In this document: one piece after another, positions 2,018 to 29,447 of the stretch | How positions within the stretch are numbered: the stretch's first letter is position 1 | Layout: each line of letters opens with the position of its first letter | NCBI RefSeq assembly: GCF_900128735.1 | Contig: NZ_LT667503.1 | Location: forward strand, 411,748 to 443,747 | DNA: 32,000 nt | Source: Candidatus Saccharimonadota bacterium | GTDB lineage: Bacteria > Pseudomonadota > Gammaproteobacteria > Enterobacterales > Enterobacteriaceae | Direction of reading: 5' to 3' | The notes under the pieces: generated by a model | The model's database searches: none | The model's input: the letters and a program-made list of their open reading frames with translations, nothing else | What the model was told of the DNA's origin: nothing | Program-made: the position numbers and the translations under genes

Positions 2018-3076
2018 ATGATTTTTTCGCAAAAAATTTTAAATTGGTATCATCTAAATGGTCGTAAAAATCTTCCATGGAAAAAAGATAAAAATATATA
2101 TAATATTTGGATCTCGGAAATTATGTTACAAAGAACGCAAGTTAACACAGTAATTCCATATTATAAAAAATTTATAAAAATTTTTCCTACTTTAAAAAAA
2201 TTATCAAAAGCTCCAATAAAAAAAATCTTATATCTTTGGAGTGGCTTAGGATTTTATCAACGAGCACATAATATATATAAAACTACACAAATCATCATCA
2301 ATCAATATCAAGGAATATTTCCCAATAATATCTCCGAAATCAAAGATTTACCAGGAATTGGTCAGTCTACAGCCCATGCTATTTTATCTTTTTCTAAAAG
2401 TTTTTGTTATCCAATATTAGATACTAATATTAAACGCATATTAATACGATATAATTTTTCTTTAAAAAAAAAATCATTTTCTGATAAAGAATTATGGCGT
2501 ATTATTAACATATTAATTCCTATACATAATGCAGAAAAATTTAATCAAGGAATGATGGATCTCGGAGCATTAATATGTCATTCTAGAAAACCAATATGTA
2601 TATCATGTCCTTTAAAAGGAACATGTAACTATTATAAAATAAAAAAATTATCAAAGATTAAAATTACTCTGAATAATTCCACTTTAGATAATAAAAAAAC
2701 TGGCATAAATTTTTTAATATTATATTATAAACATTTTATTTTATTACAAAAACAAAAAATACAAAAATTTTGGAAATCGTTATTTTTTTTTCCTATAAAT
2801 TATTTTTCTATAAAATCAAATATATGGAAAAAAATTCAAAATAAATATAAAATTCATAAAAATATAAAGTTTATGATACCTCCATTTATACATTATTGTA
2901 GTCATATAAAATTATATATTAACTCTTATATAATATACATTAATCATCAAGATAAAAAACAAAAATATTCAAAAAAAAAATATCTTTGGTATAATATTGA
3001 TCAACCCTCTAAAATAGGCATTCCTGCTCCCGTTTCTAAAATTATACAACTAATAAAAAAAAATAGAAAAAATATT
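2018..3076 (+). CDS. mutY: Adenine DNA glycosylase MutY; as sequenced it has no stop codon and runs in frame into yggX
   Basis: I start it at ATG 2018 (MIFSQKILNWYHLNGRKNLPWKK) rather than at the TTG of the ORF track. The catalytic Glu context WISEIMLQRTQV, the HhH motif LPGIGQSTAHAIL, the Asp in LDTNIKRIL and the 4Fe-4S ligands CHSRKPICISCPLKGTC are all present. The C-terminal domain motifs FIHYCSHIKL and LWYNIDQPSKIGIPAPVSKIIQLI are collinear with E. coli MutY. No stop occurs before yggX ATG 3077. Confidence 0.9.
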
Positions 3077-3316
3077 ATGAAAAAAATTAAAACTCGCACA
3101 ATTTTTTGTACATATTTGAAGAAAAATATGTTAGGCTTAGATTATCAATTTTATCCCGGTCAAATAGGAGAAAAAATTTATAATGAAATTTCCCAAGAAG
3201 CATGGCAATTATGGATTAAAGAACAAACAAAAATAATCAATGAAAAAAAATTAAATATGTTTTTAGAAAAAGATAGAGATAAACTAGAAAAAGAAATGAT
3301 AAAATTTCTATTTTAG
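3077..3316 (+). CDS. yggX: Fe(2+)-trafficking protein YggX
   Basis: 79 aa from the internal ATG. [55 protein letters not shown] matches E. coli YggX ([55 protein letters not shown]). Confidence 0.92.
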   Translation: [79 protein letters not shown]

Positions 3317-3611
3317 AAAAAAATAGTTTAATATCTTCAAAAAGATTTTTAAAAGTAATTAAAAAATCTAATATGTATATATATCTTGAAAAAATATTTT
3401 TATCATTATAAAAATACATGTTTTTTATAAAAAAAATAAGAATTATATTCAATATATAAATAAATTATTTGGTCTTTTTTTTAAAAGAAATTATCATGTT
3501 TCTTTTAGAATCTTTTTAATACTATCAAATTAATTTTTTTAAAAAAAAATCAAAAGTAATTATTAATCTTTTCTCATTTTTTTATAAAAAAAAATTATTT
3601 TTTTATAAAAA

Positions 3612-5056
3612 TTAACAAAAATTATTAATATCTTTTATTAATTGATTAACATATTTAGCTAATTGATTTAATAAATATACTTTCTCATAATCATCATTAT
3701 ATAATATTTTTAAAGAATCAATTTTATGAAAATATTGTTTAATAATTTCTGAACGAATAATATTTTGACAATGTTTTTTCCAACTTTGTTTTTCTAATAT
3801 AGTTAATGAATTAAAAAAATTTCTCGCTCGTAATCTAAAAATAATTTTATATAAACGATGATCATAAAATTTTAAATTTGTAATATTCCAATACTCTGGA
3901 GATTTTTTATGTAATAAATTTAAATGTACTTTATCTTGAGAATGAAAAAAATCATAATATAACATTAAATCTATATTCTTTGATTTCAAAACTAATGGAA
4001 AGGGAGGATGTATTAAAAAAATAGACAAAATCCATTTTTTTATATCTTTTTTATTTAAAAGAAAAAAAAATTTCTTTTGATATTTATAATAATTTAAATT
4101 AAGTCGTTGACACGATTTTACAGACAATGAATTGTATTTAAAAAACATAGGTGACTGATTCAAATAAATAATCTTAATTCCAACTAACAATAAATCTTTA
4201 ATAGTATAATTGATTTTATTTGATTTTTCATATAATAAAACTAAATCTTTAAGGGATCTTTCTAAATCAAAAATCAAAAGTAAATTATTATTCTTTGGAT
4301 GATAACCGAATATCATAACACAACTAATATTATTTCTTTTACTACCAAATATACTAGATAAATAAAAAAAAGGTTTGTGATAATTCTTATGAATAAAATA
4401 TCGTATATTATTTTTTTTAGACATAATATATAACATAAAAAAAAATTTTTTATTTTTAGAACATAATAACTTTGCTACTTCTATAGTGGCAAAAACATCA
4501 GAAGAGGCATCATGTACATTCCTATGTAAAATATTATTAATCTTAGTAAATTCAGATAATTTAAAGATAATATGACCTTCAGTATTTTTAGGCCATAAAA
4601 TATTATTTGGATAAAAAATATAAAAAGCCCGTAAAACATTTAAAATATCCCAACTAGAATTTCCATTTTTCCAACACCATTCATATGGATCCAAGCAATT
4701 TCGATAAAATATATTACGTGTTATTAAATTATCAAATTTTAAGTTATTAAACCCAACAATACAGGTGTCTTTTTTTAAAAAAATATTATATATTTCTCTT
4801 GCAAAATAATATTCATTTATTCCTTTTTTACATAAATCTTGAGGTAATATTTTGGTAATTAATACGGAATGAGGATCTGGCAAGTAATCTAAAGGTGGAA
4901 TACAAAAAAAATTTTTTTTTTCTCTATGATATTAAAAGATAAATCAGTTCGGAGGCTAGAAAATTGAGAGACTTTATCTAATGCTGTATGAACTCCAAAT
5001 GTTTCGTAATCATAAAATAAAAAATATTTAAAAAGTTTATTTGATATTTTTAGCAT
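3612..5056 (-). CDS. sbcB: Exodeoxyribonuclease I (SbcB), interrupted by a 1-nt frameshift in an A10 tract (possible pseudogene or slippage-dependent gene)
   Basis: The main ORF 3612..4883 carries Exo II (GFNNLKFDNLITRNIFYRN) and Exo III (HDASSDVFATIEVAKL). The Exo I motif (MLKISNKLFKYFLFYDYETFGVHTALDKVSQFSSLRTD) is encoded from ATG 5056 in another frame. That frame stops just after the coding-strand A10T8 run at 4904-4921. Confidence 0.88.
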
Positions 5057-5101
5057 ATTAACCTAATATTAAAAATTTATTTTAATAATTCTATTATTTT
5101 A

Positions 5102-5174
5102 CTCCCCTGACTGGACTCGAACCAGTGACATACGGATTAACAGTCCGCCGTTCTACCAACTGAACTACAGAGGA
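5102..5174 (-). tRNA. tRNA-Asn (anticodon GUU)
   Basis: The reverse complement tcctctgtagttcagttggtagaacggcggactgttaatccgtatgtcactggttcgagtccagtcaggggag is almost identical to E. coli tRNA-Asn. It folds as a cloverleaf with loop cuGUUaa. No CCA is encoded. Confidence 0.95.
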
Positions 5175-5377
5175 ATAATTATATTTTATATCATAAAAAT
5201 GAAAAAAAAGCAACAAAAAAGGATTATGAAAAGTCAGAAAAAGATAAAAACTTTTATTTTTTAGGTATTTAAAGAATAAATAATAATATTTTTTTTTTTT
5301 TTAATAAAAAATATAGATTACTAAAAAAAATTGCTTTATAATATCACTATAATATTTTTTTTTAAAAAAAAATACTT

Positions 5378-5450
5378 GGCCCCTTAGCTCAGTGGTTAGA
5401 GCACACGACTCATAATCGTTTGGTCGCTGGTTCAAATCCAGCAGGGGCCA
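5378..5450 (+). tRNA. ileX: tRNA-Ile2 (anticodon CAU, lysidine-type; near-identical to E. coli ileX)
   Basis: ggccccttagctcagtggttagagcacacgactcataatcgtttggtcgctggttcaaatccagcaggggcca. The acceptor, D and T arms match E. coli ileX rather than the elongator or initiator tRNA-Met. Confidence 0.85.
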
Positions 5451-5481
5451 TTAAATAATAATATAAAGAAAAATTTTTTAA

Positions 5482-5901
5482 CTAAAAAATAAAATTTAAT
5501 GAAATATTCATATTTGAAATAAAAACTAGTTGAGCAATAACTTCTCCAGAATTAATATAAAAATTTATTTTACTTTTATTCCAAATTAATAATTTAACTT
5601 CACCTTCATTTAACTTTTTAAGAAAATTTATAAAATTTCCAAAAATAATATTTTTCATAACACCTAATCCAGCACGAGGTAATATTAAATACTGGATATT
5701 TTCCTTTTCCAAGTTACAACGATATAAAGAAATACCAGTGGATAACAATTCCGATTGATTAGGCATAATACATAATTTATTTTTTACACATAAATTTAAG
5801 TATAATCCTATTACACCATTCATATGATAAAAAAACAATGGTAATTGTAATTTTGTGCGTTGATCTAAAATTTTTAAATGGATTATACTTCTCCAAGACA
5901 T
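5482..5901 (-). CDS. dut: dUTPase (Dut) homologue, degenerate: catalytic motif III replaced and C-terminal motif V absent
   Basis: 139 aa, collinear without gaps with E. coli Dut over much of its length (KILDQR, PRAGLG, WN, SGEVIAQLVF). However GLIDSDYQG is replaced by NFLKKLNEG, AGLDL by IGLYL, and the terminal RGEGGFGHSG arm is missing. Confidence 0.7.
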   Translation of the reverse strand: MSWRSIIHLKILDQRTKLQLPLFFYHMNGVIGLYLNLCVKNKLCIMPNQSELLSTGISLYRCNLEKENIQYLILPRAGLGVMKNIIFGNFINFLKKLNEGEVKLLIWNKSKINFYINSGEVIAQLVFISNMNISLNFIF

Positions 5902-5977
5902 AAAAATATCCTATATAAATTTTTATACCACACAGATGCTCCAAATAATCTTAACGTAAAAAATCAATACTAAAAAT

Positions 5978-6433
5978 TTATTTTTTTTCATTAATAATTG
6001 ATATAGTAATATTTGTAAATATATTTTTATAAGGAGAAAAAATAACTTGGTGATCCCCTAAAAAACGTAATAAACCATTCGGTAATTTTATTTCTTGTTT
6101 TTTAACTTTAATTCCTTTTTCTAAAAGCGCTTTAATAATATCTTGAACCCCAACAGAACCAAAAATTTTTTTCTTTTCGCTTGTTTTCTTAGATATAATA
6201 ATAGAATTAATAGACTGAATTTTTTTAATCCTTATATTAGCTTGATTAATTTTTTCAACTTGTTTTTTTTCTAAAGATAGAATAGAGTCTTTAAATTTTT
6301 TAATGTTTTTATCGGTTGCTAAGATTACTTTTTTTTTAGGAATCAAATAATTTCTTGCATAACCATTTCTTACTGTAATTAATTGACCTAATTTTCCTAA
6401 ATTTTTTAATTTAGTTAACAAAATAACTTTCAT
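5978..6433 (-). CDS. rplI: 50S ribosomal protein L9
   Basis: 151 aa. MKVILLTKLKNLGKLGQLITVRNGYARNYLIPKKKV is the L9 N-terminal domain. It follows rpsR as in the E. coli rpsF operon. Confidence 0.95.
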   Translation of the reverse strand: MKVILLTKLKNLGKLGQLITVRNGYARNYLIPKKKVILATDKNIKKFKDSILSLEKKQVEKINQANIRIKKIQSINSIIISKKTSEKKKIFGSVGVQDIIKALLEKGIKVKKQEIKLPNGLLRFLGDHQVIFSPYKNIFTNITISIINEKK

Positions 6434-6501
6434 AAATTAATTATTATCCTATATCACACATAATTTTTTAAAAAATAGAAATTTTTTTTGATAAATTATA
6501 A

Positions 6502-6729
6502 TTACTGGTGTTGATCTGTATATGGAATAAGAGCTAAATAACGTGCAATTTTAATAGCTTTTGATAGTTGTCGTTGATATTTTGCTTTAGTTCCAGTAAT
6601 ACGACTAGGAACTATTTTTCCGCTTTCAGTAATATAATTTTTTAACATTGTAATATCTTTATAGTCTACATATTTAATGCCTTCCGAAGTAAAACGACAA
6701 AATTTTCTTCGACGAAAGTAACGAGCCAT
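6502..6729 (-). CDS. rpsR: 30S ribosomal protein S18
   Basis: 75 aa. [14 protein letters not shown]...IDYKD...[40 protein letters not shown] is near-identical to E. coli S18. Confidence 0.97.
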
Positions 6730-6842
6730 ATTCCTTTCCTTTTCTTGAATAAAATTCTAGACTTAAAAAATCAATGGTATAAACATATTATTTTTTTTAA
6801 TTAAAAAAACAAAAAATAGAATTTTAAATGAACGACAAAAAA

Positions 6843-7214
6843 TTAATGATTTATAGAATTTTTAGCTAAAGAAAAAACATTCTTTTTATGATCATCTCTT
6901 ATTTTTAACATTGGAGATACTTTATTAATAGCTTTTTTATTAATGATAATTAAATTTCGAATAATATTATTATTAAATTTAAAATGTCTTGCTAACTCTT
7001 TCATTAATTTTACGTTAACTTCAATATTTATCAATAAAAAATGAGCTTTTTTTAATTTTTTAATCGAATAAGCTAAAGGTTTTCTACCCCAATCCTCTAA
7101 ACGATGAATTTTCCCTTGAGTTGCAAGAATCATCTTTTTATATAATTCAATAATATGTGCAATATTTTCGCTTTGATCTGGATGGATCATTAATATAATT
7201 TCATAATAACGCAT
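6843..7214 (-). CDS. rpsF: 30S ribosomal protein S6
   Basis: 123 aa. MRYYEIILMIHPDQSE...IHRLEDWGRKPLAYSIKKLKKAHFLLINIE matches S6. Confidence 0.95.
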   Translation of the reverse strand: MRYYEIILMIHPDQSENIAHIIELYKKMILATQGKIHRLEDWGRKPLAYSIKKLKKAHFLLINIEVNVKLMKELARHFKFNNNIIRNLIIINKKAINKVSPMLKIRDDHKKNVFSLAKNSINH

Positions 7215-7435
7215 AAATATAATTCCTTAATGACTGTTATATAAAAATATAATTTTAAATTTCTCTGATTTTCATATTTTAACTGAAATATATATAAAAC
7301 TCAATATAAGATGATTATAATTATTTATTATATGTTTATTACTTATTTAAAATAAAAAAATAATCAAAATTTATCTATTTATTCTCCGTTTATTTCACTT
7401 AAAAAAAGTAAAAAATTTAAAATGTAAATTAAAGT

Positions 7436-8374
7436 TTATTTATTATTATTTATAATTTTTTCTATTTTTGCCATCAATTCATTTTTATTATTATCATAAA
7501 TTAAAGTAATATTTTTCCATTTGCGCAACCATGTAAGTTGATGTTTGACTAATTTATGCGTCGCCTTTAAGGTATTACTAACCATATCTTGATAAGTACA
7601 TTTTTTTTGTAAATATTCCCACATTTGTTTATAACCAATACTATTCATAAAAGGCAAAGGATACTTAAAAGAAAATCGATTAGATAAATCTTGTACTTCT
7701 TTTTCAAAACCATTCTCAAGCATCTTATAAAAACGTATAGAAATTTTTTCATATAATAAATCTTTATCGAATGGAATAAAAGCAAATTGAAAAACTCGAT
7801 AAGGTAATTTATTTTGTCTGAAAGTTAATAATTTACTTAACGGAATACCACCAGAAACAAAAAAAACTTCTAACGCTCTTAAAACTCGATATATATCATT
7901 CATATGTATTTTAGAGCTAGAAACATAATCAAAAATTTTTAAAGCTTTAAATAATTTTTTTTTATTACTATTAAATAGAATTTTAAAAATATACTCTCTA
8001 ACATTTTTATTAGAAGACGGTAAACAAACTAAACCATCTAATAAAGCCTTAAAATATAACATAGAACCACCAACAAAAAAAGGAATTTTTCCAATAGAAA
8101 AAATATCATGGATCTCTTTATATGCATCATTACAAAAATCAGCAGAAGAATAAGTGTCTTGTACATTTTTAATATTAATTAATCTACATGGAGTCAAAAA
8201 CAATTCTTCTGGTGTAGGTTTATCTGTACCTATATTTAATTCTTTATATATTAATTTAGAATCTACACTTAATAATTCTATATCCGAAAATTTTTTTTTT
8301 ACTTGCATTGAAAATAAACTTTTACCAATAGCCGTTGGACCCATTAAAAAAAATAATATACGTTTAGATTTCAT
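7436..8374 (-). CDS. miaA: tRNA dimethylallyltransferase MiaA
   Basis: 312 aa. It has the P-loop LMGPTAIGKS, followed by LLSVDSKLIYKELNIGTDKPT, GGSMLYFKAL, IGYKQ and TRQ-like motifs. E. coli MiaA is 316 aa. Confidence 0.92.
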   Translation of the reverse strand: MKSKRILFFLMGPTAIGKSLFSMQVKKKFSDIELLSVDSKLIYKELNIGTDKPTPEELFLTPCRLINIKNVQDTYSSADFCNDAYKEIHDIFSIGKIPFFVGGSMLYFKALLDGLVCLPSSNKNVREYIFKILFNSNKKKLFKALKIFDYVSSSKIHMNDIYRVLRALEVFFVSGGIPLSKLLTFRQNKLPYRVFQFAFIPFDKDLLYEKISIRFYKMLENGFEKEVQDLSNRFSFKYPLPFMNSIGYKQMWEYLQKKCTYQDMVSNTLKATHKLVKHQLTWLRKWKNITLIYDNNKNELMAKIEKIINNNK

Positions 8375-9162
8375 ATACCCTTTCTATATTTATAAATTTA
8401 AAAAAAATAAAAAGATAAAATAAAATATTTTATATTTAAATAATATATAAAATATAAAAAATTTTTTTTTAAAATCATTTATATTAGTTACTATAAACTA
8501 CTCTACAGCGCAAAAATATTATAAAAAAAATAAATTACTAAAAAAATAATTAAAAAAAATTTATTTATGTAATTAATGAATAAACTTTCTTAATTTGATC
8601 TCTTCCCTATCTATAAAAATTAATTTCATAAAAAATAGAATAAAAAAATTAAAGAAATAATTTTTTTGAAACAAATTTCTTACCAATATTTAAAAAAATT
8701 TATCCAAAATTTTTTTAAATAAAAAAAATTTACTATGTCTGAATATTTTAAAAATTTTTATATTTACAATTTATCTATGCTTTCTTTAAAATATTTTTTT
8801 AATATTAATTGATAATTCATTTAATTCTGTATTAAATGATATATTTCTATACTTTTTATGTTAATAAGAATATAATTAAATAAAAAAAATACTTATATTA
8901 AATAAAAGTTAAATAAAAAAATCTTTTAAAAACTTTAATTTTTTAAAACATTTTTTATTCATAACATATATATCAAAATAAAATAAAAAAAAATCAAAAT
9001 TAACCCTAATTATTTATTAAATAAAAAATCTAAAAACCATTCAATGTTCTCTATATAAAGAAACCCAAAACCAATCTTTATATCCACTATTTATTTATAT
9101 AAAAATTTTTATATAAAAATATATATAATTATTTTTATTTATTAAGAATATATCTAAAAATC

Positions 9163-17606: not shown

Positions 17607-18866
17607 TTATGATCGTTTCATCATTTCAAAAAACTCATCATTAGTTTTTGTCATAGATAACTTATTAATTAAAAACTCCATAGCATCAATTTCGCCCATA
17701 GGATGAATAATTTTTCGTAAAATCCACATTTTTTGTAATTCTTCTGGAATGGTTAATAATTCTTCACGTCTTGTACCTGAACGATTATAATCAATCGCAG
17801 GAAAAACTCTTTTTTCTGCTATTTTTCTAGATAATGGCAACTCCATATTTCCAGTCCCTTTAAATTCTTCATAAATAACTTCATCCATTTTAGATCCAGT
17901 ATCAATTAAAGCTGTTGCTATAATAGTTAAACTTCCCCCTTCTTTCACATTACGAGCTGCTCCAAAAAATCTTTTCGGTCTATGTAAAGCGTTAGCATCA
18001 ACTCCGCCAGTTAATATTTTTCCAGAAGCAGGTACTACTGTGTTATATGCTCGAGCTAAACGAGTAATAGAATCTAATAAAATAATCACATCTTTTTTGT
18101 GTTCCACTAATCTTTTCGCTTTTTCTATTACCATCTCAGATACTTGAACATGTCTAGAAGCAGGTTCATCAAAAGTAGAAGCGATAACTTCTCCATTAAC
18201 TAATCTTTGCATTTCTGTAACTTCTTCTGGACGTTCATCAATTAATAAAACCATTAAAACACATTCCGGATGATTATAAGCAATACTTTGTGCTATATTT
18301 TGTAACAACATTGTCTTTCCAGCTTTTGGTGGAGCTACAATTAATCCTCGTTGACCTCTTCCAATAGGAGATGCTAAGTCAAGAACCCGAGCCGTTAAAT
18401 CTTCAGTAGAACCATTACCTCTTTCCATTTTTAATCTAGAATTAGCATGTAATGGTGTTAAATTTTCAAATAAAATTTTGTTACGTGCATTTTCGGGACG
18501 ATCATAATTTACTTCATTAACTTTTAATAATGCAAAATATCTTTCGCCCTCTTTAGGGGGTCGAATTTTTCCAGAAATGGTATCACCAGTTCTTAAATTA
18601 AAACGACGTATTTGACTAGGTGATACATAAATATCATCTGGACCTGCCAGATAAGAACTGTCAGAAGATCTTAAAAAACCAAAACCATCCTGTAAAATTT
18701 CTAACACACCATCACCAAATATATCCTCTCCACTTTTTGAATGTTGTTTAAGAATAGAAAAAATAATATCTTGTTTCCTCATACGCGCTAAATTTTCAAG
18801 ACCTATACTTTCACCAAGAATAATAAGCTTAGAAACCGATTTATTTTTTAATGCAGTAAGATTCAT
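17607..18866 (-). CDS. rho: Transcription termination factor Rho
   Basis: 419 aa from ATG 18866 ([42 protein letters not shown]...). It is nearly residue-for-residue identical to E. coli Rho, including the Walker A PPKAGKT and the C-terminal FFEMMKRS. The 21-aa upstream extension in the ORF track is spurious. Confidence 0.98.
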
Positions 18867-19113
18867 AATAATAAGTTTCTTAATCAATTTATAGAAAACC
18901 TTAAAATAATTTTTATATATAAAAAACAAAGATATATAAAAAATAAAAGAAATTTAAAAAAAAAATAAATATATATACAAATCAAGTAAAAATTTTCTAT
19001 AAAAATATAATAAAAAAAAATAAATAATGCAATTATTACACTTATTATTTTTATATAAATATAATTATATACATTATAAAAATTATACATTTTTTAAATG
19101 TTATTTTAAAAAT

Positions 19114-19458
19114 TTATATATTTTCTTGATTTAAATGAGTATTTAAAAAATCAATTAATTCTACTTTTGATAGCGCACCAATTTTTGTACCGATTACTTG
19201 TGAATTATAAAAAAGTAAAAGAGAAGGAATACCTCTGATAGAATATTTTGGTGGAATAAGACTATTTTTATCTACATTCATTTTACCGACTATAATTTTT
19301 CCTAAATATTGATCAGCAATATCTTCTAAAATAGGCGCTAAAATTTTACAAGGTCCACACCAATCCGCCCAAAAATCCACTAATACATATTTTTTTGATA
19401 ATAATACAATTTCATTAAAGTTTTTATCAAAAACTTCAATTATATTACTGATTTTCAT
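19114..19458 (-). CDS. trxA: Thioredoxin 1
   Basis: 114 aa. VLVDFWADWCGPCK is the active site, and GIRGIPSLLLF is present. It lies adjacent to rho as in enterobacteria. Confidence 0.95.
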   Translation of the reverse strand: MKISNIIEVFDKNFNEIVLLSKKYVLVDFWADWCGPCKILAPILEDIADQYLGKIIVGKMNVDKNSLIPPKYSIRGIPSLLLFYNSQVIGTKIGALSKVELIDFLNTHLNQENI

Positions 19459-19570
19459 ATAATATTCTCATATTTAAAAATATTTAAATTATATTTAAAA
19501 AAATAAAAAATTTTATTTTTTTAATAGTGTATATATTAAAAATTTTCTTTCGTTTAAAAAAATAAAATCT

Positions 19571-21520
19571 TTAAGATTTATTAACCCATACTGTTGAAGA
19601 TTTAGGAAGTTCTAACAAAAAACGACTAGGTTGTAAATGTTCTTTAGTACCAAATTTTATTTTATTTTTACAAAAACTTAAAAATAATTGCTGTCGTGCT
19701 CTTGTTATTCCTACATACATCAGACGACGTTCTTCTGATACATTTTCTTTTAAAATACTTTTTTTATGAGGCAAAGTTCCTTCCTCTACCCCTACAATAT
19801 ATACCACTAAAAATTCTAAACCCTTCGATGCATGTAAAGTCATTAACTGTAACTGATCTAAAGACATACTAAGACTATTATTATATTTAATATTATGATG
19901 AATATTCTGATCTGAAATAAGATGCAATAAAGCATCCCCTAAAGTCATTGGTCGCTTTAAAACTTTTTTATTTAAAATAGTTTTTAACCAATGCGAAAAT
20001 ATTTGAATATTTTTAATAGCTCTTTTTAATAATATTCGATCTTTAATTTTTTTATTTAACCAATTTATATAATCAATTTTTTTAATAATCAAATCTAAAA
20101 TATCTTTAGAATTTTTAGGAATTAAAAGCATAATTTTTTTTATCCATAAAATAAAATTATGTAAAATTAAAACGGTATTTTTTTTAAAATGAAAAATAAT
20201 ACGGGCATCCATGCTCGCAAAAAATAGGCAAATTTTATATTTCTTAGCTAAAGATTTTAATTTACATAATGTAACTGAACCAATTTTACGACGTGGAATA
20301 TTAATAATTCTTAAAAAAGCTATATCATCATAAGGATTAACAATAAGACGTAAATATGCTAATAAATCTTTAATTTCTAAATTTTCAAAAAAAGAGTTTC
20401 CTTCATGAATATGATATGGAATTTTTTGATATATTAATTCAAATTCGAAAATCTTTGCTTGATAATTATTACGATATAAGATAGCGTAATCTTGGAATTT
20501 TTTTTTATAAAAATTTTTATGAACTTTAATATGATTAACTATAATTTTAGCTTCGTGAACTTCATTTAAAGCAATAAAAATATATATTTTTTTTCCAAAC
20601 GCTAAAGTAGAAAATAACTTTTTGTTAAACAAATTAGAATTATTGGCAATTAATTGATTAGCGGCTTTTAAAATACAACCAGAAGAACGATAATTTTGTT
20701 CTAATTTAACAACATTTAAATTTGGAAAATCATCTCTTAAAAAGTAAAAATTTTTTGGGCGCGCTCCTCTCCAGGAATAAATAGACTGATCATCATCACC
20801 TACCAATGTAAAATTTTGATTTTTTTCACTTAATACTTTAATTAATTCATATTGACTTCCATTTGTATCTTGATATTCATCAACTAATAGATATTGAATT
20901 TTTTTTTGCCAACGAAGTCTCACTAATACATTACTTTTTAGTAGTAATGTTGGTAAAAAAATTAAGTCATCAAAATCCAATAAATTATGAGACCTTAAAA
21001 AATTAGTATACTTATGATATAAATCAAAAAATTTTTCATGTGATATTTTTTTTATATATATACGAGCTAATTCTGGCGATAGTAAAAGATTTTTCCATTT
21101 TTTAATTTGATTAAACAATTTTTTTAAAAGAAAAATATCATTTTTTAATTCTATTAATGCTAAATCTTTTAAAACATGTAATTGCTCTTGATTGTCTAAT
21201 AATGTAAAAGAAGAAGAAAAACCTAAGATTTTAATTTCTTCTCGAATAATCTTTAAACCAAAAGCATGAAAAGTAGAAATAAATAATTGCTTTATTATTT
21301 TGTCAGATAATAAATTTAATAAACGCCATCGTATTTCTTGAGCAGCTTTATTAGTAAAAGTTACAGTAATAATTCTAGAAGGATCATATTGATAAAATGT
21401 AATTAATTGAAAAATTTTATTAATAATTACACTTGTTTTACCGGAACCAGCGCCTGCTAAAACTAGACATGGACCTTGAATCAAATGAATAGCTTTTTTT
21501 TGTGCAATATTTAATTTCAT
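19571..21520 (-). CDS. rep: ATP-dependent DNA helicase Rep
   Basis: 649 aa. MKLNIAQKKAIHLIQGPCLVLAGAGSGKTSVIINK (motif I), VTFTNKAAQEI, LLVDEYQDTN (motif II), VGDDDQSIYSWRGA, MTLHASKGLEF and YVGITRAR are present. Its position next to ilvC matches E. coli rep. Confidence 0.93.
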   Translation of the reverse strand: MKLNIAQKKAIHLIQGPCLVLAGAGSGKTSVIINKIFQLITFYQYDPSRIITVTFTNKAAQEIRWRLLNLLSDKIIKQLFISTFHAFGLKIIREEIKILGFSSSFTLLDNQEQLHVLKDLALIELKNDIFLLKKLFNQIKKWKNLLLSPELARIYIKKISHEKFFDLYHKYTNFLRSHNLLDFDDLIFLPTLLLKSNVLVRLRWQKKIQYLLVDEYQDTNGSQYELIKVLSEKNQNFTLVGDDDQSIYSWRGARPKNFYFLRDDFPNLNVVKLEQNYRSSGCILKAANQLIANNSNLFNKKLFSTLAFGKKIYIFIALNEVHEAKIIVNHIKVHKNFYKKKFQDYAILYRNNYQAKIFEFELIYQKIPYHIHEGNSFFENLEIKDLLAYLRLIVNPYDDIAFLRIINIPRRKIGSVTLCKLKSLAKKYKICLFFASMDARIIFHFKKNTVLILHNFILWIKKIMLLIPKNSKDILDLIIKKIDYINWLNKKIKDRILLKRAIKNIQIFSHWLKTILNKKVLKRPMTLGDALLHLISDQNIHHNIKYNNSLSMSLDQLQLMTLHASKGLEFLVVYIVGVEEGTLPHKKSILKENVSEERRLMYVGITRARQQLFLSFCKNKIKFGTKEHLQPSRFLLELPKSSTVWVNKS

Positions 21521-21620
21521 AATATTTGTATAATTAAAAAAATAGAAGATAATTAATTTAATGAATTAATTTATATGTAAAAAAATACGCTTTTGATATA
21601 TAAAAAATTAAAAGTATCTT

Positions 21621-23087
21621 TTATAAAGACTTTGTTTTTCTCATATAAGACCGAAGACGTTTGCCAACTAATTCAATTCGGTGATTTCGTACACTATAAT
21701 TTATAGATAAAAGTTGATTCGGATTAATATTTTCTTCTATTATTGATTCACCTAAATCACTGCTTTTAACTGAATTGATAAAATTATTTAATAATGGTAT
21801 AGCACGATTAGAAAAAAGGTAATTTCCATATTCTGCTGTATCAGAAATAACCATATTCATTTCATATAGTCTTTTTCGAGCAATAGTATTAGCTATTAAA
21901 GGTAATTCGTGTAGAGATTCATAATATGCTGATTCTTCTGTAATGCCAGCTTCTAACATTGTTTCAAATGCTAATTCTACCCCTGCTTTTAACATAGCAA
22001 TCATCAAAGTACATTTTTCAAAATATTCCTGATCTTGAATAATACGATTTTCATAAATCGCAGATTTTTCAAAATTAGAATCACGTAGTTTTTTTCTCCA
22101 TGTATATAAATTTAGATTATTATCTTTCCAATCTTGCATCATATTTTTAGAAAATTGACCAGATATAATATCATCCATATGCAAACGATACAAAGGTTTT
22201 AAAATTTTTTTTAATGCTAGAGATAATGTATAAACGCGTATTTTAGCTGTATTAGAAAGAAAATCTAACAATAAAGATATTCCACCAACCTTCATCACTT
22301 CTGTTAATTTTTCCCATCCAAATTGCAGTAATGTGGTGGAATATTCAGAATCATAACCTTTACTAATTAAATGCTGATAACAAACTAAAGAACAAGCCTG
22401 TAGCATTCCACATAAAATAGTTTGTTCTCCCATTAAATCTGATTTCACTTCCGCAATAAATGAAGAACTTAAAATTCCTGCTTTATGAGAACCTAATCCC
22501 ACTGCCCAAGCTTTAGCTAATTCTAAACCTTCTAAGTTTGGATCATTCATTTTATGTACAGCAATTAACGCGGGTACTCCAAAACCTTTCAAAAATTCTT
22601 GACGGACTTCGGTTCCCGGACATTTAGGCGCCACCATAATCACAGTAATATCTGAACGAATTTTTTCTCCTACTTCTACAATGTTAAAACCATGGGAATA
22701 TCCTAAAATAGCATTTTTTTTCATTAATTTTTGTAATTTTTTTACAACAATTGTATGCTCTTTATCCGGAGTTAAATTAATTACAAAATCAGCGTTTGGT
22801 ATTAACTTCTTATATGTATCTACTAAAAAATTATTTTTAATAGCATTTTGCCAAGAAATAGATTTCTTTTTGATAGATTCACTTCGTAAAGCATAAGCAA
22901 TATTTAAACCTGAATCTCGTAAATTTAAACCTTGATTTAAACCTTGCGCTCCGCATCCAACAATAACAATATTTTTTTGATTTAATATTTTTGTAGAATT
23001 TAAAAAATCTTTTGAATGTAATAAAAATCCAGTATTTAGCTCTTTTAATTGATTTCTAAAATTTAATGAATTGAAATAATTTTTCAC
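21621..23087 (-). CDS. ilvC: Ketol-acid reductoisomerase IlvC
   Basis: 488 aa (E. coli 491). [14 protein letters not shown], the Rossmann motif [18 protein letters not shown] and [12 protein letters not shown] are present. Confidence 0.96.
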
Positions 23088-23174
23088 AATATAAGTCCTT
23101 ATGTACTCATCAATTGTTTTTTATATAAAAAGAAAAAAATCTTTTTTGACGTCATTTCATCCATACAAATAATT

Positions 23175-25031
23175 TTAATTATGACGATATAATTTTTTTA
23201 AATCACGAACCGCACCTTGATCTGCGCTAGTAGCTAATTTACTATAAATCTTTAAAGAATCAGAAATAAAACGAATACGATTTTTTGGAGTATACGCATT
23301 TAAGCCACGACTTTCTTGTTTTATTTTTCTTTTTTTTAAAATATTTTGAGAAACATTTAAATTAATGCAACGGTTTTGAATATCAATAAAAATTGAATCA
23401 CCATTCTTAACTAACGCTAATAAACCTTTATTAGCTGCTTCAGGCGAAATATGTCCAATAGAAATTCCAGAAGTACCTCCTGAAAAACGGCCATCGGTTA
23501 TTAAAGCGCATGATTTATCTAAACCTTTTGATTTTAAATAGGTAGTAGGATATAACATTTCTTGCATTCCAGGACCTCCGCAAGGACCTTCATATCTAAT
23601 CACTATTACAGTACCAGGTTTAATTTGATCAGTTAAAATAGCTTTAACAGCATCATCTTCACTTTCATAAACGCACGCTTTTCCTAAAAAGACTAAATCT
23701 TTTTTATAAATTCCCGCGGTCTTTATTATACAACCATCTTGAGCGATATTCCCATATAAAACTGCTAATCCACCATCATAACTATATGCAAATTCGTAAG
23801 AACGTATACAACCAAACTGACGATCTGTATCTAAGGTAGACCATCTAAATGATTGAGAAAAAGGAAGAATTGTCTTTTTTCCACAAGGTCCTGCTAAAAA
23901 CATAGATTTTATCTTATCATCTTTTGTTTTTAAAATATCATATTTTTTTAAAGTTTTAGACAATGTCATACCTAAAATATTTAAGACCGAGGTGTCAATC
24001 ATTTTTTTATTATTTAATTCAGATAAAATAGCCATTACACCACCAGCTCGATGCAAGTCTTCCATATGATATAATTTAGTACTAGGAGATAATTTGCATA
24101 AATTTGGAGTAGTGCGTGATAAACTATCAATATCTTTCATAGTAAAATCAATTTTAGCTTCATTAGCCATCGCTAAAAGATGTAAAACTGTATTAGTAGA
24201 ACCACCTATTGCAATGTCCAGTGTCATAGCATTTTTTAATGAAATCTGGTTTACTAAATTACACGGCAATAACCGAAAATCATCTTTTTCATAGTAATTC
24301 TTAGTATTTTTAACTATAATCTCCCCAGCCTTCAGAAAAAGTTTTTTACGATCGCTATGAGTAGCTAAAATTGTGCCATTACCCGGTAAAGATAAACCAA
24401 GAACTTCAGTTAAACAATTCATAGAATTTGCAGTAAACATCCCGGAACATGAACCACAAGTTGGACATGCTGATTCTTCAATATCATGCAAAATCTGATC
24501 AGATGTATTTTTATCAGCGCTATGTGTAATAGCATCAACTAAATCTACAGTAAAAATTTCATTTTTTACTTTTACTTTTCCAGATTCCATGGGACCGCCA
24601 GAAACAAAAACAGTAGGAATATTTAATCTTAAAGCAGCAAGTAACATACCAGGGGTAATTTTATCACAATTTGAAATACAAACCATAGCATCAACACAAT
24701 GAGCTTGTATCATATATTCAATAGAATCAGCAATTAACTCTCGAGAAGGTAATGAATACAACATTCCCGAATGCCCCATTGCTATTCCATCGTCTATTGC
24801 TATAGTATTAAATTCTTTTGCGATTCCACCAAATTTTTTAATTTGAAGCGATACTAATCTACCTAATTCACGTAAATGAATATGACCCGGTACAAATTCC
24901 GTAAAAGAATTAACAACAGCAATAATAGGTTTTCCAAAATCTTTTTCTTTTACTCCGGTTGCTCGCCATAAAGCTCGAGCGCCTGCCATGTTCCTTCCGT
25001 TAATAGTTTTTGCAGAACGATAGATAGGCAT
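23175..25031 (-). CDS. ilvD: Dihydroxy-acid dehydratase IlvD
   Basis: 618 aa from ATG 25031 ([26 protein letters not shown]; E. coli [26 protein letters not shown]). [14 protein letters not shown] and [11 protein letters not shown] are present. The poly-Phe 42-aa extension in the ORF track is spurious. Confidence 0.96.
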
Positions 25032-25317
25032 ATTTAAATACTCATATATAAAAAATGTGAAAAATAAAATAAATAAAAAAAAATAAAAAAAATAGAAGTA
25101 AATTACATTAAAAAAAAATATAAATATTTTTTTTATTTTTAAATTTTTATAATTCATTGCAATATTTTGAATTTTTAAAAATATATTGTTAATTTATTTT
25201 TTTTGATAGGCAAATATGATAAGATTTTAAATATATAATATATATAGTTTCGTTATGATTGTTTAGAATAAAATCGAAAAATAAATCTTCCATCCTAACA
25301 TAAAAAAATTATTAAAA

Positions 25318-25391
25318 CAGGGGTGGAGGGAATTGAACCCCCAACATTCGGTTTTGGAGACCGATGCTCTACCTTATTGAACTACACCCCT
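25318..25391 (-). tRNA. trpT: tRNA-Trp (anticodon CCA)
   Basis: The reverse complement aggggtgtagttcaataaggtagagcatcggtctccaaaaccgaatgttgggggttcaattccctccacccctg is close to E. coli trpT. Confidence 0.95.
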
Positions 25392-25667
25392 AAGAAATTT
25401 TATATATCTAATAAAATATTTTTAAAGTTTCTTTTTTAATAATATTATTATAAAAATAATTATACATGAGAGATAAAAAAAAAACAACAAGAACAAATTT
25501 TTATCACTTAGTTATATAAAGTTTAAATAATTTATTAATATATATAAAATATTTAACTATATTTATAGTATTTGTTTTATATCATTTTTTATATCAATAA
25601 AGATATATATTCCATATAATGATCTTTATATTTTTATTTTAATGATAAAAAAAAGAGTTTGTATAAT

Positions 25668-26882
25668 ATGAAAAATAAAACCATTTATTTAGATTATGCA
25701 GCAACCACTCCATTAGATCCAAAAGTAGTCAAAAAAATGAAGCGGTACCTTACTTTAGACGGAGTATTTGGAAATGCTGCATCACGATCTCATCAATTTG
25801 GATGGCATGCAGAAGAAGCTGTTGATATCGCCCGAAATGAAATTGCCGATTTAATTGGTGCAGATTCAAGGGAAATTATTTTTACATCCGGCGCTACAGA
25901 ATCAAATAATTTAGCTATTAAAGGAGTATGCGAATTTTACAAAAAAAAAAACAACCATATCATTACTAGTAAAATTGAACACAAATCTGTTTTAGATAGC
26001 TGCCGGTACTTAGAAGGAAAAGGATGTAAAATAACATATTTAACACCACAAACAAATGGTATAATTAATATTGAAGAAATAAAAAAAAATATTTTACCAA
26101 ACACGTTATTAATATCTATTATGCATGTAAATAACGAAATTGGAGTTATCCAAGATATTAAAATGATCGGTAAAATTTGTAAAAAAAAAGGAATCTTTTT
26201 TCATGTCGATGCCACACAGAGTCTTGGAAAAATAAATATTAATCTAAAAAAATTAAATATTGATTTATTATCATGTTCCGGCCATAAAATATATGGACCG
26301 AAAGGAATAGGAATCTTATATGTACGACGACAACCACGAGTACGTTTAACAGCTCAAATTCATGGAGGTGGACATGAACGAGGAATGCGATCTGGAACAT
26401 TAGCCGTACATCAAATTGTTGGTTTTGGGGAAGCATGTAAAATCTTAAAGAAAAAAATGAAAAAAGAAAATATTCGATATTTCCAATTAAGAAATATGTT
26501 ATGGAATGGTATCAAAAATATTCCAGAAATTTATTTAAATAGTTCTTTCAAATATATTACTAGCAATATTTTAAATGTTAGTTTTAATTTTATTGAAGGT
26601 GAATCATTAATTATGGCATTAAAAGATTTAGCGGTTTCATCTGGATCTGCCTGTACTTCCGCTAGTTTAGAAGCTTCTTATGTATTACGTGCAATCGGTG
26701 TAAAAGATGAACTAGCACATAGTTCTATACGCTTCTCTTTAGGAAGATTTACAACAATTCATGATATTGAAAATACAATTAAATCTATCCATAAGGCTGT
26801 AAATAAATTACGTATTCTTTCGCCATTATGGGAGATGTTTCAAAAAGGTATTAATTTAGATACAATTTTGTGGAATCAATAG
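25668..26882 (+). CDS. iscS: Cysteine desulfurase IscS
   Basis: It starts [48 protein letters not shown] (PLP lysine), [12 protein letters not shown] (catalytic Cys) and LSPLWEM are present. I prefer ATG 25668 over the TTG 25659 of the ORF track. Confidence 0.96.
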
Positions 26883-26900
26883 CGTTCTGGAGTAGAAAAA

Positions 26901-27284
26901 ATGACTTATAGTAAAAAAGTATTAGATCATTATGAAAATCCTCGCAATGTTGGATCATTTAGTGAAAAAGAAAAAAATGTTGGTAGTAGCTTAGTAGGCG
27001 CGCCATCTTGCGGAGATGTTATGAAATTACAAATAAAAGTTAATTCTAAAAGTAATATTATAGAAGATGCATGTTTTAAAACATATGGCTGTGGATCTGC
27101 TATTGCATCAAGCTCATTAATGACAGAATGGGTAAAAGGAAAAACTTTAAATGAAGCTGAAAAAATAAAAAATTCCGAAATAGCAAAAGAACTAGAATTA
27201 CCTCCTGTTAAAATTCATTGCTCTATTTTAGCTGAAGATGCAATTAAAGCTGCTATTTCTGATTATAAAAATAAGCTAAAATAA
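26901..27284 (+). CDS. iscU: Fe-S cluster assembly scaffold IscU
   Basis: 127 aa. YENPRNVGS, GAPSCGDVMKL, YGCGSAIASSS and LPPVKIHCSILAEDAIKAAI are present. A ggag SD lies 8 nt upstream of the ATG. Confidence 0.96.
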   Translation: MTYSKKVLDHYENPRNVGSFSEKEKNVGSSLVGAPSCGDVMKLQIKVNSKSNIIEDACFKTYGCGSAIASSSLMTEWVKGKTLNEAEKIKNSEIAKELELPPVKIHCSILAEDAIKAAISDYKNKLK

Positions 27285-27321
27285 AAAATTAAAAAAAATT
27301 AATGAAATAAATATTATATAT

Positions 27322-27362
27322 GTGCTGAATAATTTATTTTTTATTTCAGCACTATTTTTTTT
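27322..27362 (+). terminator. Hairpin plus T-tract in the iscU-hscB spacer (candidate intrinsic terminator/attenuator)
   Basis: gtgctgaa (27322-27329) pairs with ttcagcac (27345-27352) across a 15-nt loop, followed by tatttttttt. The stem is short and the loop is large. Confidence 0.35.
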
Positions 27363-27428
27363 AAGAATTTGATATTATTTTAAATAAAAGAATTAAATCA
27401 TTAATTATAAAAATAAAAAGGAAGATTT

Positions 27429-27938
27429 ATGGATTATTTTTCTTTATTTCAAATACCCCAAAAATTTCACATCAATAAAAATCTTTTAGAAAAAAAATTC
27501 TATTCACTACAAAAAAAATATCATCCTGACATCTATAAAAAAAAAAATCATAATAAAAATGATTATCCTATTTCTTCTTCCAAAATAAATAAAGCATATA
27601 ATATATTAAAAGATAAATTTAACCGAGCAAAATATCTTTTAAAAATATATAACGGAAATAAAATAAAAAAAAAAAAAATTCTCACGCAAGATTCTTTAAA
27701 TAAACAATTTAAACTATATGAGATTATTGAAAAATTTAAAAAAAAAAAAGAAGATATTAAAAATATTGATATTTTTATTAAAAAAATTAAAAATAAAATT
27801 CGTTATTATTTTTTTAAAATTAATCAAGAATTTAAATTAAAAAAAATATGCGAGGCTCAAGAAACATTGTATAATTTATTTTTTAAAAAAAAAATATTAT
27901 TAATCTTAAAAGAAATAAAGGATGATTATGTTAAATAA
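27429..27938 (+). CDS. hscB: Co-chaperone HscB (J-protein)
   Basis: 169 aa (E. coli 171). MDYFSLFQIPQKFHINKNLLEKKFYSLQKKYHPDIY is a J-domain with HPD. It lies between iscU and hscA. Confidence 0.88.
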   Translation: MDYFSLFQIPQKFHINKNLLEKKFYSLQKKYHPDIYKKKNHNKNDYPISSSKINKAYNILKDKFNRAKYLLKIYNGNKIKKKKILTQDSLNKQFKLYEIIEKFKKKKEDIKNIDIFIKKIKNKIRYYFFKINQEFKLKKICEAQETLYNLFFKKKILLILKEIKDDYVK

Positions 27939-29447
27939 AAAAAAAAATCTTATGTCATTGGAATTGATTTCGGAACATCATATTGTTTAGTTTCATATAT
28001 AAAAAAAAACAAACTATTTATTGTATCTAATAAAAAAAATTGTAAATTAATTCCTACAATTATTACTTTTCAAAAGAAATGTTTTAAAATTGGCTGGAAC
28101 GCAAAAGAACAAATGTTTCAAGATCCAGTAAACACAATTTCTTCTATAAAAAGATTAATTGGTTTTTCATTAAAAAAAATTAATAAAAAATACCCTATGT
28201 TACCATACATTATGAAAGAAAATAGTGAAAATCAAATAGTGTTTATCACTTCTTTTGGAGAGATATCTATTTCTTTTATTATCCAAGAAATTTTAAAATA
28301 TTTACTTAAAAAAACTAAAAAATTAAACGCTCATTTAATTTCAGGAGCAGTGATTACTGTTCCGGCATATTTTAATAACATTCAAAAAAATGAAATTCGA
28401 AAAGCCGCTAAAATTATAAATTTAAAAATACTACGACTATTAAACGAACCAACAGCTGCCGCAATAGCTTATGGTTTAGAAAAAAAACAAAAAGGCATCT
28501 TTTGTGTATATGATTTAGGCGGTGGTACTTTTGATGTTTCAATATTGAAAATTTCTAAAGGAATTTTTGAAGTTTTATCTACTAATGGTCATAATAGTTT
28601 AGGTGGTGATGATTTTGACATATTAATTGCTAATTATATAATTAAAAAATTAAAAATTTCTAGAAAATTAACTGATTATGAATACAAACAATTACTAATT
28701 GAAGCAGAAAAAATAAAAATTGACTTAAGTAAAAATAAAAAAACGAAAATAGTTTTTTTAAATCAAATAATTAATTTTAATTACCATAATTTTAATTTAT
28801 TAATCATTCCTTTAATTCAAAAAACTATAAAAATTTTAAAAAGTGCTCTTATAGACGCTAATATATATAAAAAAAATATTGATGAGATTATATTAGTTGG
28901 AGGATCTACTTATATTCCTTTAGTTCAAAAAACAATTGAAAAATTTTTTTCTAAAAAAACTTTGTCGTCTATTGATCCTACTGAAGTAGTTGTACGGGGA
29001 GCTAGCTTACACGCTTACTTTTTAAAAAATCAAAAAAACAATAAGCAAAAAAATTCTGTTTTATTACTTGACGTCCTACCTATTTCAATTGGAATAGAAT
29101 TAATGGGTGGGATTATGGAAAAGATGATTTTAAAAAATACAGTTTTACCTATAGAATCTAAAAAAATATTTACTAATTTTAAAAAAAATCAAACAGGTTT
29201 TTGTATAAATATATTTCAAGGAGAAAAAAAATATGTTAAAGATTGTCAATTATTAAAAAAATTTAAAATAAAAAATTTACCTAAAAAAAATCCAGGAGAA
29301 ATAAAAATTTTAATTATATTTCAAGTTGATGTTGATGGTTTATTACATGTTGTCATCAAAAATAATGAATTAAAAATTCAGAAAAAAATTAAAATAGATA
29401 CTATATATAATAATAATTATACTACAATTATTGACATTCAAAGATAA
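27928..29447 (+). CDS. hscA: Fe-S chaperone HscA (Hsp70 family); start region out of frame at an A11 tract, and the C-terminal helical lid is absent
   Basis: The frame of ORF 28113..29447 extends upstream to the hscB stop and encodes SYVIGIDFGTSYCLVSYIKK (the phosphate-1 motif), but has no start codon. ATG 27928 (MLNKKK) is in another frame across the A-run 27937-27947. VITVPAYFN, LLNEPTAAAIAYG, DLGGGTFDVS, LVGGSTYIP and FQVDVDGLL are present. Confidence 0.88.

Follow-up and report, generated by a model that had tools for sequence, protein, structure and literature searches.

Can a gene whose reading frame is broken at a run of adenines or thymines still be in use? This question is raised by a stretch of 32,000 nucleotides (hereafter the window; RefSeq assembly GCF_900128735.1, contig NZ_LT667503.1, positions 411,748 to 443,747), in which an original prediction had described five otherwise intact genes (mutY, sbcB, orn, dapF and hscA), each broken at an A/T homopolymer and each repaired by the same addition of one base. 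We found that four of them, sbcB, orn, dapF and hscA, carry real -1 frameshifts, and that mutY is unbroken. The explanation which we favour, and hold to be likely, is that the frameshifts were inherited in genes that are still used and are rescued by a one-base correction at the run, with mutY and yggX forming a separate, conserved fusion.

The window (G+C content of approximately 22%) originates from Buchnera aphidicola of a Cinara-type (Lachninae) aphid. Entries named Buchnera aphidicola, from a RefSeq replicon of 443,747 bp, are identical to the products of its open reading frames (ORFs); the identical RefSeq or annotated proteins are WP_075432336.1, WP_269456673.1, WP_231938297.1, WP_075432350.1, P0123, P0243 and P0246. 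The nearest named genome is that of Buchnera from Cinara tujafilina (BCt, CP001817), an older assembly with a DNA identity of approximately 78%. The genomic state of the runs was judged from public assemblies of related lineages, which were left unrooted: a sister lineage with approximately 90% DNA identity to the window, represented by independent short-read assemblies (MEGAHIT, Logan) of the samples ERZ27237414, ERZ27237417, ERZ27237428, DRR198866 and DRR198868, and the further lineages SRR21069242, SRR21069211 and BCt.

The five homopolymers lie exactly where they had been placed: A9 at 3055-3063, T10 at 4912-4921, A10 at 9169-9178, A10 at 16457-16466 and A11 at 27937-27947. Six-frame translation and in-silico repair bore out the break in sbcB, orn, dapF and hscA. 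In each of these genes the conserved N-terminal part and the body are in different frames and are joined by the addition of one nucleotide (deletion of two nucleotides is an equally good repair). Unrepaired, the upstream frames end after 55 (sbcB), 6 (orn), 23 (dapF) and 20-22 (hscA) codons. The repaired products comprise 481 (SbcB), 178 (Orn), 270 (DapF) and 508 (HscA) amino acids (aa), the first three being the lengths that had been predicted, and all four match their own NCBIfam equivalogs in a single stretch spanning the junction. The common repair is not specific in the case of mutY, which contains no break to repair and in which the addition or removal of one base at the A9 run creates, in either case, a stop codon in silico. 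Thus, a single +/-1 indel in an A/T run of about 9-10 nucleotides or more, within a gene that is otherwise uninterrupted, was found in four genes, not five.

The sbcB gene (exonuclease I; 3612-5056, minus strand) is divided between a 55-codon N-terminal frame, running from the ATG at 5056 to a stop codon that ends at 4889, and a body that extends to 3612. Its slip site (4904-4921) consists, on the coding strand, of A10 followed by T8 (GAG-A10-T8), and would need one more base to become the in-frame A11T8. Repaired SbcB scores 454 bits against NF008746, with residues 11-475 aligned to positions 8-475 of the 477 in the profile, and its junction peptide reads ...NIIEKKKNFFCIPPLDYLPDPHSVLITK. The dapF gene (diaminopimelate epimerase; 15705-16555, minus strand) has an N-terminal frame beginning with the ATG at 16516 (or TTG at 16555) and stopping at 16445, and a body that reaches 15705. 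The slip site (16457-16466) is T10 on the coding strand, where the in-frame state is T11; DapF repaired from the ATG scores 254 bits against TIGR00652 (residues 1-269 on positions 6-269 of 270), and the peptide across its junction is ...NYFFFSSR. By analogy with BCt (MTIKKNIVRFSKMHGLGNDF), the TTG at 16555 (MTDFKKNTVYFSK MHGLGNDF...) may be the true start of dapF, and the repaired protein would then be of approximately 283 rather than 270 aa.

In the two remaining genes the run lies close to the start codon. In orn (oligoribonuclease; 9163-9698, plus strand) ATG CAT is followed by the A10 run (9169-9178; codons 3-5, in-frame lengths 8 or 11) and then by a body shifted to the -1 frame. Upstream of the first in-frame ATG, at 9201, lies the catalytic D-x-E motif (WIDLE), and RefSeq entries begin orn either at an ATT codon (WP_269456673.1, 171 aa, MWIDLEMTG) or at an internal ATG (WP_075432336.1, 165 aa). 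Repaired Orn scores 256 bits against NF003765 (residues 2-178 on positions 3-180 of 189). The hscA gene (27922-29447, plus strand) overlaps the end of hscB (27429-27938, plus strand), whose TAA stop codon (27936-27938) is made up of T27936 and the first two adenines of the A11 run (27937-27947). Relative to hscB, both of the hscA ATG codons upstream of the run (27922 and 27928) occupy the +1 frame, and run lengths of 9 or 12 would be in frame with the upstream ATG. The hscA body (KKKSYVIGIDFGT...) shares the frame of hscB and begins directly past its stop codon; the first in-frame ATG of hscA (28113) lies downstream of the ATPase phosphate-1 motif. Residues 6-497 of repaired HscA align to positions 15-508 of a profile of 621, and the C-terminal lid region is therefore missing. 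The HscA protein of the window is of approximately 500 aa, the full-length calls in the other listed Buchnera of the Cinara clade are of 495-506 aa, and those of free-living relatives are of approximately 616 aa.

The coding sequences of the window contain 17 runs of at least 10 nucleotides, 13 of which are in frame (including A13, A14, A12 and two A11); among these are the long control runs that had been listed in the original prediction, namely A13 in orn, A14 in hscB and A11 in iscS. The other four are the frameshift sites. All of the frameshifts are thus located in a class of runs holding less than 1% of the coding bases, and their positions are not where chance would place them.

To judge from the assemblies of relatives, the frameshifts are not private to the window genome, and at least three of them (sbcB, dapF and hscA) are inherited and predate the split between the window and the sister lineage. 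The comparison of run lengths with a sister strain, which had been proposed as a check, gave the same out-of-frame lengths in these three genes. At sbcB, the sister lineage (contig L085) has an identical A10-T8, called as genes of 55 and 417 aa, and BCt has A8-T7, which is three bases shorter and hence in the same wrong phase; SRR21069242 (contig L086) carries A11-T8 within an intact gene of 479 aa. At dapF, five contigs of the sister lineage (L087-L091, each from a different sample) and SRR21069242 (L083) have T10, and BCt, where the gene is intact (281 aa), has T11. The hscA run occurs as T-A11-TCT in both the window and the sister lineage (L084), and A11 is also present in SRR21069211 (L092), with 74% amino acid identity. 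For orn, SRR21069242 has ATG CAG followed by A10, in the same wrong phase as the window, and BCt has A9, in the other wrong phase. The in-frame relatives are one base longer (A11T8 at sbcB in SRR21069242, T11 at dapF in BCt), which marks the lesions as -1 deletions such as replication slippage produces.

The genes concerned also bear the marks of purifying selection. The ratio of nonsynonymous to synonymous substitution rates (dN/dS; Nei-Gojobori, window versus sister lineage) was 0.28 for the sbcB body, 0.21 for orn, 0.13 for the dapF body and 0.18 for hscA, at a synonymous divergence (dS) of approximately 0.3. Constraint was seen on both sides of the shift wherever it could be measured: the N-terminal fragment of sbcB, with 2 nonsynonymous against 13 synonymous changes, has a dN/dS of 0.023, the 58 hscA codons preceding the first in-frame ATG have one of 0.18, and the N-terminal fragment of dapF has 2 synonymous and no nonsynonymous changes. 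The values for the frameshifted genes are all significantly below the neutral expectation; those of intact neighbours extend from 0.007 (rho) to 0.32, with dS of approximately 0.14-0.44. No further stop codons or frame breaks were found in the frameshifted genes of the window or the sister lineage. The runs themselves have kept their length: the three frameshift runs that sister contigs span are of equal length in the two lineages, whereas 12 of the 14 intergenic runs of at least 9 nucleotides are not (Fisher p = 0.015). Conservation between lineages is thus combined with dN/dS values of 0.02-0.28, in agreement with the earlier remark that these genes do not resemble old pseudogenes in decay. 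Since the shift is shared and there is constraint on both sides of the run, it would follow that the two parts are, at least on occasion, made as a single protein. The four genes are probably functional, each with a recoding site.

We propose that replication slippage in an ancestor deleted one base in a long A/T run of sbcB, dapF, orn and hscA, and that at least the deletions in sbcB, dapF and hscA were then inherited. A fraction of the expression products would cross the run in the corrected frame. What this requires at all four sites is a transcript longer by one nucleotide or, to the same effect, a -1 step during translation. The correction would most likely be made by RNA polymerase, which is inferred to slip backwards on the run and to insert an additional A or U. 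The same protein would result if the ribosome slipped by -1 on A_AAA_AAA or U_UUU_UUU, and the two routes are not separable here. In sum, a gene that is broken in form would still yield a low level of full-length enzyme. Such a mechanism has precedents. Rescue by slippage is reported to have been shown experimentally in Buchnera and Blochmannia by Tamas et al. 2008, and the long-term conservation of such frameshifts in Blochmannia was described by Wernegreen et al. 2010, both as cited in PMC3017870 and bioRxiv 10.1101/2022.08.28.505559; according to the account given in PMC3017870, the cDNA class of corrected length reached tens of percent. Moreover, single-base insertions are dominant at homopolymers in Buchnera transcripts, with 151 of 157 insertions located in runs (PMC5574713), and Buchnera genes with frameshifts of this type are conventionally annotated as functional (bioRxiv 10.1101/2022.08.28.505559).

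Several observations weigh against this explanation. An easy +1 reversion has not been fixed in the lineages that carry the shifts, and a transcriptome-wide survey of errors in Buchnera, of small depth, recorded no frame-restoring transcript (PMC5574713). In the sister lineage, orn is in frame (ATGC followed by A10, the equivalent of A8; MQKKNLIW...), and the A10 run of the window finds its counterpart only in the more distant lineage SRR21069242. Where the window has ATG ATT ATG, the sister hscA reads ATA ATT ATT, although its A11 run and its open, conserved body are retained; an additional A would not connect this body to any ATG, because both upstream ATGs have been lost. The A9 run of BCt orn and the A10 run inferred for BCt hscA need -1 or +2, and not +1. 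Finally, BCt sbcB contains three breaks (the common one at the A/T run and two more), and the gene appears to be decaying in the BCt lineage at least.

Some of these points speak for an alternative which concerns orn and hscA only. The prediction that one added base joins the ATG to the body is open to another reading in these two genes, in which the run lies just past the start codon and, for hscA, the sister lineage lacks the upstream ATGs. Translation might begin at a near-cognate ATT codon downstream of the run, with no need of correction, and the upstream ATG and the run would then be a leader. Both runs occupy codons 3-8, and an in-frame ATT stands just before the catalytic motif in each gene (ATT TGG ATT GAT in orn, ATT GGA ATT GAT in hscA); it is from such a codon that NCBI calls orn (WP_269456673.1). 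The open and conserved hscA body of the sister lineage, with both ATGs gone, and the different wrong-phase lengths of the orn and hscA runs in BCt also favour this reading. Nevertheless, four lineages have kept ATG-CAN-poly(A) at orn and three have kept ATG TTA AAT-poly(A) at hscA; intact relatives begin with M-(K)n at exactly this point; the hscA run has stayed at A11 in three lineages, whereas runs in leaders usually change in length; and initiation at ATT is inefficient. We regard this alternative as possible but doubtful.

The hscB/hscA junction is of particular value in this respect, since it provides a clean site at which polymerase slippage, ribosomal slippage and near-cognate initiation can be tested against one another. 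A read-through fusion of hscB and hscA, which share a frame with TAA between them, was also considered and was rejected as the main route; slippage on the run cannot remove the TAA, and there was no other sign of such a fusion. In BCt, residues ~7-40 of the annotated HscA (P0125) represent an out-of-frame reading between two A runs, and the IDFGT ATPase motif is therefore absent from the annotated frame. The same residues match the window (27928-28040) when it is translated with one A fewer, which implies that the BCt hscA run would be A10 or of an equivalent length. Upstream of the junction, hscB of the window contains four in-frame A runs of 10-14 nucleotides (27537-27894), three of which are shorter or interrupted in the sister lineage (A8, A7 and A6); long runs thus seem to be building up in the window lineage.

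It might also be supposed that the frame is corrected by the ribosome and not by RNA polymerase, through an unstimulated -1 shift on A_AAA_AAA (sbcB, orn and hscA) or U_UUU_UUU (dapF, and the T8 of sbcB). A slippery heptamer (X_XXY_YYZ) can indeed be read in the phase of the upstream frame at all four sites, the shift needed is -1 everywhere, and the protein would be the same as that from a +1 insertion in the transcript, so that a ribosomal slip fits the sites equally well. However, the 84 nucleotides past each run showed no structure beyond that of shuffled controls (z = +0.45, -0.12, -1.44 and +0.25), and no internal Shine-Dalgarno sequence of the dnaX type was seen by eye upstream of the runs; neither a downstream hairpin or pseudoknot nor a Shine-Dalgarno-like element was thus found at any of the four sites. 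Since there is no structure beyond that of shuffled sequences, no signal other than the run can be seen. The published precedent in Buchnera and Blochmannia, as cited in PMC3017870 and bioRxiv 10.1101/2022.08.28.505559, is moreover one of heterogeneity in transcript length. A ribosomal correction therefore seems to us rather unlikely. Programmed -1 frameshifting of the dnaX type (A_AAA_AAG with stimulators) resembles the present sites in having an A-rich slippery heptamer in phase and a -1 shift. It differs from them in that here there is no downstream structure or internal Shine-Dalgarno stimulator, and the shifted product is the sole useful product and not an alternative isoform.

A related idea, to which we assign a low probability, is that the out-of-frame lengths of hscA (A11), sbcB (A10) and dapF (T10) have been selected as fixed attenuators of expression, i.e. 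as programmed recoding sites. If this were true, HscA, exonuclease I and DapF would be produced at a low and constant level, set by the runs, in a genome from which most transcriptional regulation has disappeared.

Very improbable is the view that the four genes are plain pseudogenes, dead but not yet eroded, which yield no full-length protein. Genome reduction is continuing in the Buchnera of Lachninae, several Cinara Buchnera carry 5'-truncated hscA calls, and the missing frame-restoring transcripts of the survey cited above and the state of sbcB in BCt point in the same direction. In BCt (contig L082, 4352-5784), a full-length sbcB remnant lies in four frame pieces, with no gene called. A decaying pseudogene would have multiple disruptions and a dN/dS near 1, which describes only the BCt sbcB; the genes of the window have one disruption each and dN/dS values (0.13-0.28) like those of intact neighbours, including the upstream segments of sbcB and dapF and the hscA segment preceding the ATG. 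The shifts in sbcB, dapF and hscA predate the split from the sister lineage, the frames are still open in both lineages, and the runs have remained constant where intergenic ones have not. The pseudogene explanation is rejected for the window lineage.

The weakest rival, that long homopolymers were under-called by a single base in a genome which is really in frame, can point to the same +1 change at all four sites, the known proneness to error of runs of at least 10 nucleotides on several platforms, RefSeq proteins that restate the window's own assembly and an orn that is in frame in the closest lineage, but it is hardly credible and is rejected, since independent short-read assemblies reproduce the out-of-frame lengths of sbcB, dapF (five samples and SRR21069242) and hscA (two other lineages), the longer runs of the window (A13, A14, A12, A11) are in frame where errors should rise with run length, and the constancy of coding runs beside the variability of intergenic ones is a matter of biology and not of length-dependent calling. 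Systematic under-calling, one of the two explanations originally put forward, is thus refuted for sbcB, dapF and hscA. For orn, whose frameshift is placed in genomic DNA by the distant lineage only, it is unlikely, and the residual doubt about an artefact is limited to this gene. Scans of metagenome contigs aimed at the orn start and at the 5' end of dapF gave no match.

The frameshifts of sbcB, dapF, orn and hscA, with their probable rescue by slippage, represent a known phenomenon of endosymbionts with new examples; both the phenomenon and the annotation convention have already been published, and no new category is involved. The poly(A) frameshifts of Buchnera and Blochmannia of the type described by Tamas et al. 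2008, as they are presented in the citing literature, are alike in consisting of a single indel in an A/T run of about 10 nucleotides or more, in a gene that is otherwise intact and under selection, in a reduced, AT-rich endosymbiont genome. The present cases differ from them in the genes and clade (sbcB, dapF, orn and hscA in Cinara-clade Buchnera), in being described here at the DNA level, and in that two of the four runs stand directly past the start codon, which gives rise to the reading by alternative initiation. The Blochmannia cases of Wernegreen et al. 2010, as far as they are described in the same sources, share with ours a shift common to diverged lineages, the lack of further erosion and dN/dS values like those of intact genes. 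They concern another symbiont and host, and targeted sequencing in place of the public assemblies compared here, whose lineages are ~10% and ~20-25% divergent at the DNA level. The conserved poly(A) disruption of pheA in Buchnera of Chaitophorinae (bioRxiv 10.1101/2022.08.28.505559) differs in both gene and aphid clade. In the tssM gene of Citrobacter rodentium (PMC4256274), an interrupted gene is likewise restored in a fraction of transcripts by poly(A) slippage; there, however, the case is a single, experimentally verified gene of a free-living pathogen. What is added is the set of four genes in Cinara-clade Buchnera, with inheritance across lineages and constraint, the revised reading of mutY, and the A11 junction of hscB and hscA, conserved even where the upstream ATG has gone.

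The fifth locus requires a different explanation. The mutY-yggX ORF (2018-3316, plus strand) is a single uninterrupted frame of 432 aa, in which the profile matches cover residues 3-350 for MutY and 359-432 for YggX. The A9 run (3055-3063) falls in the linker between them and is not an indel site; yggX has retained its own ATG at 3077. Gene calls with the fusion exist for the window genome itself (NCBI, P0243, 432 aa), for the sister lineage (P0245, also 432 aa), for another Logan lineage (P0356, 433 aa), for SRR21069242 (L086, 427 aa) and for BCt, where the ORF on L082 encodes 406 aa and has HhH-GPD, NUDIX_4 and Iron_traffic domains, so that one continuous ORF with both complete domains is present in five lineages (406-433 aa). 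The alignment of the window and BCt across the junction has no gap, and BCt AAACAATAC, opposite the A9 run of the window, is in the same reading frame and contains no homopolymer. On this sequence evidence, mutY is unbroken and part of a conserved in-frame MutY-YggX fusion ORF in at least five Cinara-type Buchnera lineages. The gapless junction and the fused ORF in relatives indicate that the reading frame of the fusion is ancestral and that no homopolymer indel was involved. The stop codon of mutY would have been lost long ago, MutY and YggX being encoded from then on as one conserved ORF. A literature search on mutY, yggX, Buchnera and fusion found no paper that describes it. The NCBI product name of the ORF is only "oxidative damage protection protein", and mutY-yggX would be better labelled as a fusion.

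The gene order of the window is that of Buchnera: dnaB-yqgF-trmB-mutY-yggX-sbcB-tRNAs-dut-rplI-rpsR-rpsF-miaA-orn-tRNA-rpmE, followed by hslVU-zapB-fpr-(orphan)-dapF-tRNAs-rho-trxA-rep-ilvC-ilvD and by tRNA-iscS-iscU-hscB-hscA-fdx-der-yfgM. The orphan (13896-15152, minus strand) encodes a protein of 418 aa with no NCBIfam match, annotated as hypothetical (WP_075432350.1); it is conserved, at 419 aa in the sister lineage (with a dN/dS of 0.18) and at 415 aa in SRR21069242, and BCt has no gene call at the corresponding place. Three long spacers, 8375-9162, 15153-15704 and 16556-16989 (approximately 790, 550 and 430 bp), contain no ORF of at least 60 aa and have no gene call in relatives either; they may be remnants of lost genes. 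In SRR21069242 (L086, 5984-6963), a gene of the Dus family (tRNA-dihydrouridine synthase) is called as pieces of 240 and 53 aa, which may be another homopolymer frameshift.

It should be noted that public annotation represents the four frameshifted genes by truncated proteins of 423 (sbcB), 246 (dapF), 165 or 171 (orn) and 444 (hscA) aa. In this clade of Buchnera, annotation should treat sbcB, dapF, orn and hscA as genes that probably function and contain a recoding site. For dapF this is of special importance, as the gene belongs to the lysine pathway, on which the symbiosis depends. The four genes provide additional multi-lineage cases of frameshifts that persist for a long time under purifying selection.

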